A DNA stretch of 37,286 nucleotides from Escherichia coli (GTDB lineage Bacteria > Pseudomonadota > Gammaproteobacteria > Enterobacterales > Enterobacteriaceae). Each line of letters begins with the position of its first letter. Positions within the stretch are counted from its first letter, which is position 1. Made by a program: the position numbers and the translations under genes. Below are positions 23,271-26,217 of this stretch, piece after piece. The notes beneath the pieces are model-generated. The model saw nothing but the letters and a program-made list of their open reading frames with translations. It searched no databases and was not told the DNA's origin. The stretch lies in the NCBI RefSeq assembly GCF_003334815.1, contig NZ_QOWO01000036.1; one strand, given 5' to 3'.

Positions 23271-24446
23271 ATGCGTCTGTTTTCTATTCCTCCACCCACG
23301 CTACTGGCGGGGTTTCTGGCGGTATTAATTGGCTACGCCAGTTCAGCGGCAATAATCTGGCAAGCAGCGATTGTCGCCGGAGCCACCACTGCACAAATCT
23401 CTGGCTGGATGACGGCGCTGGGGCTGGCAATGGGCGTCAGTACGCTGACTCTGACATTATGGTATCGCGTACCTGTTCTCACCGCATGGTCAACGCCTGG
23501 CGCGGCTTTGTTGGTCACCGGATTGCAGGGACTAACACTTAACGAAGCCATCGGCGTTTTTATTGTCACCAACGCGCTAATAGTCCTCTGCGGCATAACG
23601 GGACTCTTTGCTCGTCTGATGCGCATTATTCCGCACTCGCTTGCGGCGGCAATGCTTGCCGGGATTTTATTACGCTTTGGTTTACAGGCGTTTGCCAGTC
23701 TGGACGGTCAATTTACGTTGTGTGGAAGTATGTTGCTGGTATGGCTGGCAACCAAGGCCGTTGCGCCGCGCTATGCGGTAATTGCCGCGATGATTATTGG
23801 GATCGTGATCGTCATCGCGCAAGGTGACGTTGTCACAACTGATGTTGTCTTTAAACCCGTTCTCCCCACTTATATTACCCCTGATTTTTCGTTTGCTCAC
23901 AGCCTGAGCGTTGCACTCCCCCTTTTTCTGGTGACGATGGCATCGCAAAACGCACCGGGTATCGCAGCAATGAAAGCAGCTGGATATTCGGCTCCTGTTT
24001 CGCCATTAATTGTATTTACTGGATTGCTGGCACTGGTTTTTTCCCCTTTCGGCGTTTATTCCGTCGGTATTGCGGCAATCACCGCGGCTATTTGCCAAAG
24101 CCCGGAAGCGCATCCGGATAAAGATCAACGTTGGCTGGCCGCTGCCGTTGCAGGCATTTTCTATTTGCTCGCAGGTCTGTTTGGTAGTGCCATTACCGGG
24201 ATGATGGCTGCCCTGCCCGTAAGTTGGATCCAGATGCTGGCAGGTCTGGCGCTGTTAAGTACCATCGGCGGCAGTTTGTATCAGGCGCTGCATAATGAGC
24301 GTGAGCGAGACGCGGCGGTGGTGGCATTTCTGGTAACGGCAAGTGGATTGACGCTGGTCGGGATTGGTTCTGCGTTTTGGGGATTAATTGCCGGAGGCGT
24401 TTGTTACGTGGTGTTGAATTTAATCGCTGACAGAAACCGATATTGA
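23271..24446 (+). CDS. ydcO: BenE-family (benzoate-transporter-like) membrane protein
   Basis: ATG at 23271 preceded by GAGGTG; 391 aa, highly hydrophobic. The ORF track extends 87 codons upstream across the ydcN start. Confidence 0.85.
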   Translation: MRLFSIPPPTLLAGFLAVLIGYASSAAIIWQAAIVAGATTAQISGWMTALGLAMGVSTLTLTLWYRVPVLTAWSTPGAALLVTGLQGLTLNEAIGVFIVTNALIVLCGITGLFARLMRIIPHSLAAAMLAGILLRFGLQAFASLDGQFTLCGSMLLVWLATKAVAPRYAVIAAMIIGIVIVIAQGDVVTTDVVFKPVLPTYITPDFSFAHSLSVALPLFLVTMASQNAPGIAAMKAAGYSAPVSPLIVFTGLLALVFSPFGVYSVGIAAITAAICQSPEAHPDKDQRWLAAAVAGIFYLLAGLFGSAITGMMAALPVSWIQMLAGLALLSTIGGSLYQALHNERERDAAVVAFLVTASGLTLVGIGSAFWGLIAGGVCYVVLNLIADRNRY

Positions 24447-26190
24447 CATCCTCCACGCCCTGAAGGACGTGGATCCCTGCTACGTTCAGGCTGTCGCCTG
24501 AATCATTTCGGTGGGTTCCTGCTTCAACGGGCGGCCTGACTGCACCATCTCTCCACAGGCAAGAACGGCGTGCCCCGCCGCTAAAATGTTGCGAGCGCCA
24601 TTTACATCGGCGTTCGCTGTATATCCACATACCTGGCATCTGAATTTACTTTGTGACAGGCGGTTCTCTTTCGCTGTATGACCACAGTACGCGCAACGCT
24701 GGCTTGTATACGCTGGCGGAACAGCAAGCACCTGACCGCCACGCCAGAGCTGCTTGTACGCAAGCTGGCGGCGCATTTCATACCAGCCCTGATCCAGTAT
24801 CGAACGGTTTAAACCTGATTTTGCCCGGACATTGCGCCCCGGCTGGCTGACCGTACCCGCTGCTGACTTTGACATGTTGCTGACCTTCAAATCCTCAATG
24901 ACTATCATTGCGTGGTTTTTGCTGACGGCCGTTGTGACTTTGTGAAGGTAGTCCCTGCGGATATTTGCGATACAGGAATGCAGTCGCTGTATTTTGCGTT
25001 TCTGCTTTTGCCAGTTGTTGCTGAATTTGACCTTGCGGCTTAACTGTCGCTGAAGTCTCGCCAGCTTCTTCTGGTTTTTCTGAAAACTGTTTACAGGCTC
25101 AAAGACTGTGCCATCTGACAGCGTGGCGAGTTTAGCCACGCCAGCATCCAGCCCGACCATTGATGCTGAAGGGTGAACCGGAGTTGATACTTCACTTTCT
25201 GTCTGAATACTGATGTACCACTTACCGCAGGACTGGCTGACAGTGACATTTTTCACAACACCCGTGACCTGACGGCTGTTCCGGTAGCGCATCCAGCCCA
25301 GTTTCGGCAGAAAAATACGGCTGTTTTCCTGATCGAGCTTAACGCCCTGCGGGTAGCGGAATGCATCATTCTGTCCCCGCTTTTTGAATCGGGGAAAAGC
25401 AGCCCGCTTCCGGAAGAAGTTTTTGTAAGCCCGCTCAAGGTCTTTCAGTGACTGTTGCAATGGCTGTGAGGGAGAATCTTTAAGCCATTGCGTTTCAGTG
25501 GCATTTTTCCACTCAACCAGCCAGGAAGCCATTTTCCCGTAAGGGATGTATTTATTACCGGCCTCATGATTCTCATTCTGACGTGCCAGAGCACGATTGA
25601 AAACGAAACGACATGCGCCTGCGAAGCGCCTCATTTCACACTCCTGTTGACCACCGGGTCTTAACTGGAATTTAAATGCCTGTAATCGTTTCACAGGTCA
25701 AATGATACTTTGGTCTGTGAAAAAAGAAACCGATATCCGGCGTGGAAGGCATTGTGTTTTCCTGATGCATGTTCACCTGCTCTTTGTCACCAGATACCGA
25801 CGCCAGATTTTTGACCATGACGCGACAGAAAAACTACGCACTTACTTTTCAAATGTATGTGCTGATTTTGAAGCTGAACTGGTTGAAATGGATGGCGAAC
25901 CAGATCACGTCCATTTGTTAATTAACTATCCTCCCAAACTGGCGATATCCAGTCTGGTAAACAGCCTCAAAGGCGTATCGGGTAGGTGACTGCGACGAGA
26001 TCGACCAGATATTGCATTCAGGTATTACTACAAAGGCGTTTTGTGGAGTCCTGGCTATTTTGCCAGTAGCTGCGGAGGTGCGCCAATATCCGTCATCCGC
26101 CAATACATTGAACAACAGCAAACACCTGGTCAGGTGGAAAACCGCGCCTTATATCCCCGCCCTGAAGGATGGGGTTTTACGGCGCACCGG
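24440..26190 (-). mobile_element. IS200/IS605-family insertion sequence (IS609-like), about 1.75 kb; boundaries approximate
   Basis: Divergent tnpB and tnpA; no terminal inverted repeats; subterminal hairpins at both ends share the 12-mer CGCCCTGAAGGA (24456-24467 and 26158-26169); sits between the ydcO stop and the ydcL terminator. Confidence 0.6.
24486..25694 (-). CDS. insQ: TnpB (IS609 OrfB; RuvC-like RNA-guided nuclease family)
   Basis: 402 aa from GTG 25694 (382 aa from ATG 25634, which has an AGGAG RBS). Conserved N-terminus [10 protein letters not shown]; RuvC-I GLDAGV, RuvC-II IEDL, zinc finger CAYCG...CQVCG, Ruv[13 protein letters not shown] all present. Confidence 0.8.
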
Positions 26191-26208
26191 ATAAAAAGCG
26201 CCATCTAA
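25702..26208 (+). pseudogene. IS200-type TnpA (Y1/HuH transposase) interrupted by one in-frame TGA
   Basis: ATG at 25702; 95 codons containing the HuH motif (PDHVHLLINYPP), then TGA at 25987-25989, then the same frame continues with ...LWSPGYFASSCGGAPISVIRQYIEQQ (conserved catalytic-Tyr region) to TAA at 26206-26208. Confidence 0.65.
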
Positions 26209-26217
26209 CGATGGCGC
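26193..26217 (-). terminator. Intrinsic terminator of ydcL
   Basis: Minus-strand RNA: GCGCCAUC-GUUA-GAUGGCGC followed by UUUUUAU, starting 9 nt after the ydcL stop. Confidence 0.6.

Follow-up and report, generated by a model that had tools for sequence, protein, structure and literature searches.

The closest described relatives of the element studied here are other copies of IS609, an ISfinder entry with intact copies in O157 and other Escherichia coli strains. Our subject is the IS609 copy between ydcO and ydcL in a 37,286-nt stretch of E. coli DNA (contig NZ_QOWO01000036.1, assembly GCF_003334815.1), called the window below, where an initial annotation made from the letters alone had placed a TnpB nuclease together with its guide RNA. 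The 2.1 kb around insQ, the tnpB gene of the element, is 100% identical in nucleotide comparison to E. coli K-12 W3110; RefSeq gives the gene order as ydcO, insQ, tnpA pseudogene and ydcL, and by sequence comparison positions 24443-26190 are the single IS609 copy of K-12, a member of the IS200/IS605 family. The O157 copy is 97.8% identical to it in nucleotides over the whole element and shares its ends, the TTTAT flank and the divergent arrangement of tnpA and tnpB. Relative to the intact O157 copy, the K-12 one carries L96* in tnpA and has lost the tnpA stop, while its TnpB differs by 12 non-synonymous changes and its guide RNA scaffold at two positions. The element, its dead transposase and the identity of InsQ as a TnpB are already in databases and in the literature; for the omegaRNA of K-12, its guide or activity, or a functional study of insQ, our literature search found no paper. 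From sequence features, and with a probability that we put at about 0.8, we argue that the K-12 copy combines a dead transposase with a competent-looking TnpB and an intact predicted omegaRNA scaffold, and that it is an idle selfish remnant under relaxed constraint.

Two further systems frame this reading. The TnpB of ISDra2 from Deinococcus radiodurans (PDB 8EXA/8H1J) has the domain order, the D/E/D residues and the zinc-finger residues of InsQ, and its element likewise has the guide RNA over the 3' end of tnpB and the right end, with the transposon-associated motif (TAM) 5' of the left end. In contrast, the two proteins are distant in sequence (about 188 bits), and in IS609 tnpA and tnpB are divergent and the presumed TAM is TTTAT. 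The TldR proteins, exapted nuclease-dead TnpB-like regulators, resemble the present case in that a tnpB homologue sits at a locus without a working transposase. InsQ, however, has an intact RuvC triad, both transposon ends are present, the predicted guide is plain flank and the locus is polymorphic and decaying in some strains; exaptation of the TldR type, with its inactivated RuvC site and lost transposon ends, was therefore rejected.

The predicted guide RNA carries most of the new evidence. Among about 70 related loci, nucleotide conservation runs beyond the tnpB stop and ceases abruptly after GGAGGATGTCAA at position 24443, the flanks beyond being unrelated. The minus strand from 24590 to 24443, a segment of 148 nt comprising the last 34 codons and the stop of insQ (the last ~100 nt) and the 43-nt right end and finishing in GGAGGAUGUCAA, folds into four stem-loops within an outer closing helix, with a minimum free energy of -61.2 kcal/mol and z=-3.0, whereas the opposite, plus, strand has z=-1.7. 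Covariation was assessed by explicit pair counting in a structure-blind MAFFT alignment of 32 loci, with shuffled and slid-partner controls. Under the K-12 fold, 89% of the cells stay paired; compensatory double changes were found in 25 of the 50 pairs, as against 12+/-2 with shuffled and 7-14 with slid partners, and double-change cells numbered 103, compared with 13-34 in the slid controls. The helices so supported are one within the coding region (GCGGCG/CGCCGU), one spanning the stop codon (UUCAGGC/GCCUGAA) and the terminal hairpin, whereas support for the inner helix of the CCUGU...GCAGG domain is partial. The outer helix ACAUUU/GGAUGU, which would pair 24589-24584 with 24451-24446, is paired in 97% of cases but shows one-sided, wobble-compatible changes; it was left out of the model as unproven. 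Lineage-specific hairpin insertions upset the register of a 70-sequence MAFFT alignment, so that RNAalifold recovered just 12 pairs from it, and it was replaced by the 32-sequence subset. In distant homologues, mostly of Burkholderiales, extra hairpins of ~25-45 nt stand in the loops of two omegaRNA helices (alignment A3; L031, L043, L044, L057, L059-L061, L065-L067, L076-L083 and others).

Existing models detect this RNA poorly. According to Meers et al., Rfam covers no more than a small subset of TnpB omegaRNAs; neither of the TnpB-associated models that they name, RF03065 and RF02998, matched even at E<=10 in a permissive Rfam scan. The same scan placed three other families on the minus strand within 24433-24559: HgcC (RF00062) at 24433-24549 with 22 bits against a gathering threshold of 50, RAGATH-18 (RF03064) at 24516-24559 with 25 bits against 44.9, and sot0042 (RF02656) at 24452-24490 with 15 bits against 88. 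These families share with the scaffold the terminal hairpin with its GGAGGAUGUCAA tail and the CCUGUGGAG...GAAGCAGGAA helix, but scores of 15-25 bits are far under gathering thresholds of 45-88 bits, and the RNA of the IS609 clade lies outside every curated Rfam model. Two of the three families have a link to TnpB in the literature, where sotRNAs are reported as transcripts at tnpB 3' ends and RNAs derived from RAGATH-18 guide IS607 TnpBs. As all Rfam matches were sub-threshold, we built a new covariance model, R1, from the 32 loci and applied it to the window and to 39 held-out, more distant loci. In the window it has one match, 24443-24590 on the minus strand, whose 170 bits are the highest score of all loci, the left-end hairpin giving a faint echo. 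All 39 held-out loci returned full-length matches of 90-145 bits on the tnpB strand, ending at the right-end terminus, and contained 230 double-change cells against 16-62 with slid partners, in an alignment that leans towards structure because it was fitted to the model. We conclude from these comparisons that a conserved multi-helix omegaRNA scaffold is predicted to be encoded at 24590-24443 on the minus strand.

Two of the related loci call for separate mention. In a metagenome-assembled genome of Hahellaceae, a second, weak R1 match of 29.5 bits (L027:4849-4971, plus strand) lies ~1.1 kb downstream of the main one, perhaps a right end that stands alone or has degraded. A 2057-bp contig labelled 'Streptomyces mutabilis' (L014, NZ_BMTT01000064.1) carries an IS609-like tnpB of enterobacterial type with 82% amino acid identity, probably a contamination and not a real Streptomyces element.

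The predicted protein partner of this RNA also appears well preserved. The insQ coding sequence (24486-25694, minus strand) has a GTG start and encodes 402 amino acids, which RefSeq names 'RNA-guided endonuclease InsQ/TnpB family protein'; COG0675 takes its name from InsQ. It contains the Pfam domains HTH_OrfB_IS605, OrfB_IS605 and Cas12f1-like TNB, scores 379.8 bits against the NCBIfam model guided_TnpB (NF040570; cutoff 100) and aligns with the solved ISDra2 TnpB structure at E=1.9e-54 and about 188 bits. That alignment identifies the RuvC acidic residues as GLD183AG, IE267DLK and NAD363VNG, encoded at 25146-25148, 24894-24896 and 24606-24608, and the TNB domain holds a conserved CxxC...CxxC zinc finger (C334/C337/C353/C356). 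For a wider comparison we aligned 49 uninterrupted TnpBs of 58-94% identity, drawn from 80 related loci. D183, E267 and D363 all fall in columns at least 95% conserved, and K-12 InsQ has the consensus residue in all 130 such columns. The three RuvC motifs and the zinc finger named in the initial annotation are thus borne out, and a search for substitutions of the D/E/D residues in the alignments with ISDra2 and the 49 homologues, a check that it had proposed as potentially refuting, found none. By its sequence features, InsQ is apparently an intact RNA-guided endonuclease.

The transposase gene, on the other hand, is disrupted, as had also been claimed. Aligned with the intact tnpA of O157 IS609, the tnpA pseudogene (25702-26133, plus strand; a Y1 HUH transposase, with the older names yncK and insP) has a nonsense change, TTA>TGA, in codon 96 of 143 (25987-25989), and its normal stop is also gone (TAG>CAG, 26131-26133). 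The catalytic tyrosine is borne by the C-terminal part of TnpA, which the nonsense codon removes. The N-terminal 95 amino acids still score 99 bits against the NCBIfam model transpos_IS200, and RefSeq labels the gene a pseudogene, 'IS200/IS605 family transposase; internal stop; missing C-terminus'. A frameshift as the cause was ruled out, since relative to O157 the reading frame is kept and the lesions are a single nonsense substitution and the loss of the stop; an open reading frame at 26041-26208 in another frame is irrelevant to the defect. With its Y1 transposase gene knocked out by a nonsense codon, the K-12 copy is immobile, and the literature agrees: a stop codon in K-12 IS609 tnpA and absence of transposition were described in 2010 (PMC2891674), and MG1655, with one IS609 copy, gained no new IS609 insertion among 758 in mutation-accumulation lines (PMC5009759). 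The start codons of the two genes are divergent, the GTG of insQ at 25694 on the minus strand and the ATG of tnpA at 25702 on the plus strand, and a 14-nt inverted repeat (25689-25702 and 25709-25722) extends across the tnpA start codon, perhaps as a translational hairpin like that of IS200 or as a control site shared by the two genes.

The boundaries of the element can be fixed exactly, as comparison with an empty ydcO/ydcL allele (L002) gives 24443 for the right end and 26190 for the left. On the plus strand the empty allele reads CCGATA followed by ATAAAAAGC, and the occupied K-12 allele reads CCGATA, then the element from TTGACATCC to GCGCACCGG, then ATAAAAAGC, with no target duplication. 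Exactly this stretch, 24443-26190, is common to the IS609 copies at other E. coli sites, and the O157 copy, at a different site, has identical ends and the same TTTAT flank. The complete copy is therefore 1748 bp in length with divergent tnpA and tnpB; its minus strand, on which tnpB is sense, is called the 'top' strand and has the order TTTAT, left end, tnpB, right end finishing in GGAGGATGTCAA, and then TATCGGTTTCTGTCAG. Subterminal hairpins stand near both ends. The one at the right end (24452-24473, minus strand) doubles as the terminal helix of the scaffold, a 9-bp helix with compensatory changes in seven of its nine pairs; the one at the left end (26154-26174, minus strand) is a copy of it, the direct repeat D2, with a weak R1 match at 26155-26174 on the minus strand. 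The two are 86% identical and repeat each other in direct, not inverted, orientation. Imperfect subterminal hairpins at either end and insertion 3' of a short motif, without target duplication and without terminal inverted repeats, are traits of the IS200/IS605 family; a functional Y1 HUH TnpA is the trait that is missing, and as tnpA is non-functional, K-12 IS609 is a defective member.

The position of the right end also fixes the predicted guide. Directly 3' of the conserved terminus, at 24442-24427 on the minus strand, the 16 nt 5'-UAUCGGUUUCUGUCAG-3' are antisense to the last ydcO codons (..D R N R Y), and this sequence has its sole match in the window there. On the other side, TTTAT (26191-26195, minus strand), the insertion target and presumed TAM, stands directly 5' of the left end at both the K-12 and the O157 sites. 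IS609 copies elsewhere in E. coli match for 5 nt past the left end (query position 1896), and in related elements the flank motif is TTTAT or TTTAC, with TTGAT in distant ones. TTGAT, the flank of these distant members of the clade, is the TAM of ISDra2. The empty ydcO/ydcL junction consists of TTTAT and TATCGGTTTCTGTCAG, that is, of the predicted TAM and target, whereas at the occupied locus the 16-nt target is preceded by the right-end bases GTCAA and not by TTTAT. An exact 12-nt direct repeat, AGAAACCGATAT, occurs at 24432-24443 and 25725-25736 on the plus strand, so that the first 11 nt of the guide recur within the element close to the tnpA 5' end, there after CCGGA and not TTTAT; about 0.1 such 12-nt repeats are expected by chance in the region.

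Most of what the initial annotation said about the RNA holds. A covarying structured RNA is predicted by R1 where it had placed an omegaRNA, over the 3' end of tnpB and the right end on the minus strand at the ydcO-proximal side, and the guide that it derived from the last codons of ydcO follows directly on the right-end terminus. Its region had the right location, though with the right end at 24443 its bound of 24440 was off by 3 nt; likewise, strand and location of its RNA span of about 24650 to 24440 stand, whereas the scaffold is shorter, 24590-24443. The covariance-model search that it had suggested gave a divided outcome: negative with Rfam, HgcC, RAGATH-18 and sot0042 being sub-threshold though on the right strand and in the right position, and positive with R1 at 24443-24590.

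How these parts would work together follows from the TnpB mechanism, reportedly established by Karvelis 2021, Altae-Tran 2021 and Meers 2023. A transcript that runs through insQ into the flank would be processed to an omegaRNA with a guide of ~16 nt, and the TnpB-omegaRNA complex would cut DNA in which TTTAT is followed by the matching target, namely the IS-free ydcO/ydcL junction. The occupied locus would be protected from self-cutting by the GTCAA that precedes its target. As there is no transposase, and hence no excision, the nuclease would be without a substrate in a K-12 cell, and it would become relevant only when an empty allele enters the cell.

Variation at the locus shows how far this module is maintained. 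Across 5426 complete E. coli genomes, the ydcO/ydcL junction is empty in 2020 (about 37%) and split, that is, occupied, in about 3370 (about 62%), which rules out that the insertion is fixed in E. coli; a figure of 4308 genomes is inflated because it counts IS609 copies at other sites. In one match of the empty type (H31), the junction is ~42 bp longer. Constraint was examined in a small sample of nine sequences, K-12 and eight further copies at the same locus. In all eight of the latter tnpA is a pseudogene, some with extra frameshifts, whereas insQ is intact in six; the two broken genes are those of L085, with a nonsense codon at position 77, and of L088, whose start is lost (GTG>GCG). Other same-locus copies of insQ carry L211P, N244Y or R308H at family-invariant positions. 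Variants of insQ among the nine sequences comprise 15 synonymous and 23 non-synonymous ones, about 0.4 of the neutral ratio, and the most diverged pairs have a ratio of non-synonymous to synonymous substitution rates (dN/dS) of 0.23-0.43. Nucleotide diversity is 0.0188 in the tnpA pseudogene, 0.0115 in insQ and 0.004 in the scaffold, the lowest in the element. This sequence variation suggests a constraint that is relaxed but not absent, or else a mixture of functional and decaying lineages, and does not indicate domestication. To call the nuclease 'retained', as the initial annotation did, is too strong, given the two broken genes among eight and the several copies with invariant-residue substitutions.

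The insertion has also touched its neighbours. The intrinsic terminator of ydcL, found by a terminator scan, has its hairpin at 26198-26217 on the minus strand, in what the empty-site alignment identifies as host flank. The full terminator is GCGCCATCGTTAGATGGCGC TTTTTAT (26191-26217, minus strand), with IS609 directly after it, so the T-tail of the terminator provides the TTTAT target and presumed TAM; in the empty allele the hairpin stands between the convergent ydcO and ydcL. At the other end, the ydcO stop codon TGA (24444-24446, plus strand) is built of right-end bases of IS609, whereas the empty allele ends in CGA TAA. Because IS609 bases supply the stop (24441-24446, plus strand), the YdcO of K-12 is longer by one residue, a Tyr, than that of empty-site strains. 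At the far edge of the window and reaching its last base, 37134-37286 (plus strand) matches the Rfam family of the sok antitoxin RNA (RF01794) over its full length, with 72.4 bits against a gathering score of 59; this is presumably the hokB/sokB locus.

Several points weigh against our reading or limit it. Nothing resembling a promoter turned up on the minus strand from the ydcL terminator to insQ in a simple sigma-70 scan, and just 7 bp separate the start codons of insQ and tnpA. Rfam, scanned at gathering thresholds, returned nothing in the scaffold region. The guide length of 16 nt is taken by analogy from the TnpB literature, and so, by analogy, is the role of TTTAT as the TAM of IS609, beyond its role as TnpA target. 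A 2026 screen purified an 'IS609' TnpB, and the accessible part of its report does not list the protein as an active enzyme. Finally, covariation of the terminal helix could stem from a role in DNA, as a hairpin bound by TnpA. Transposases of the IS200/IS605 family bind subterminal hairpins on the top strand. If this last point is extended to the whole conserved structure, the latter would be no RNA at all but a right-end signal that TnpA binds in single-stranded DNA. Such an explanation fits the duplication of the terminal hairpin at the left end, and the wobble pairs do not speak to it, for the top strand is the tnpB-sense strand and G-T cannot be separated from G-U. It fails, however, on the interior of the scaffold: three more helices, which lie in coding sequence 50-148 nt inward of the end, show strong covariation in both the MAFFT and the held-out alignments, a fourth (34-38 with 72-76) hardly varies, and these internal helices have no counterpart at the left end. 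Moreover, the RAGATH-18 RNA consensus fits the helix 34-38/72-76 with its flanks, and HgcC and sot0042 fit the 3' part. While the terminal hairpin may be partly conserved for TnpA binding as DNA, the internal helices are not so explicable, and we consider a purely DNA-level signal hardly credible.

The lack of a promoter-like site in the scan also speaks for a second alternative, that the module is an inert relic, silent or biochemically inactive in K-12, and looks intact because too little time for decay has passed since the death of tnpA. The two insQ genes already broken at the same locus, the substitutions at invariant positions in further copies and the absence of IS609 events in mutation-accumulation lines all agree with inertness. 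Decay, however, has left little trace in K-12 itself, where InsQ deviates at none of the 130 conserved columns and the scaffold heads the family model; the deficit of non-synonymous changes relative to neutral expectation and the low diversity of the scaffold likewise argue for some constraint, and insQ mRNA is mentioned in microarray or RNA-seq work on other E. coli strains. We regard inertness as unlikely, though worth keeping in mind. The opposite view, that the pair has been domesticated or acts like a drive, kept for a transposase-free role in which it excludes or converts IS-free alleles or affects ydcO expression through its antisense guide, draws on the majority share of the occupied allele, with a perfect TAM and target in the other 37%, on an insQ dN/dS below 1 while tnpA gathers extra lesions, and on a guide antisense to the ydcO 3' end. 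Against it stand the polymorphism of the locus, the insQ pseudogenes and changed invariant residues, a dN/dS of 0.25-0.4, which indicates weak constraint, and the two remaining transposon ends and intact RuvC site, which set InsQ apart from known exapted TnpB-like regulators; we think it very improbable. A related reading is that of a stand-alone allele drive: the transposase-less IS609 at ydcO/ydcL would persist in most E. coli through TnpB-omegaRNA cutting of the IS-free junction, TTTAT and TATCGGTTTCTGTCAG, whenever the alleles meet by horizontal transfer. Replacement of the occupied allele would then be blocked, or the empty allele would be converted by homologous repair, a homing without transposition in the standard laboratory strain. 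This is a speculative proposal to which we give little credence, and our preferred reading is still that of an idle selfish remnant with a competent-looking TnpB and an intact predicted scaffold.

Annotation of an RNA and prediction of its target are a small increment on a known element. What they add are the exact transposon ends, a predicted guide and TAM, an initial assessment of constraint among same-locus copies and a covariance-supported omegaRNA model, outside Rfam, for a clade that extends from Enterobacterales to Burkholderiales. If the InsQ-omegaRNA of K-12 is indeed active, the most used laboratory strain would have an endogenous programmable nuclease targeting a common E. coli allele. 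This would be relevant to TnpB experiments in K-12 hosts, where background activity or cross-loading of guide RNAs would be possible, and to strain crosses at ydcO-ydcL; more broadly, it would bear on how IS200/IS605 elements persist after the loss of their transposase.

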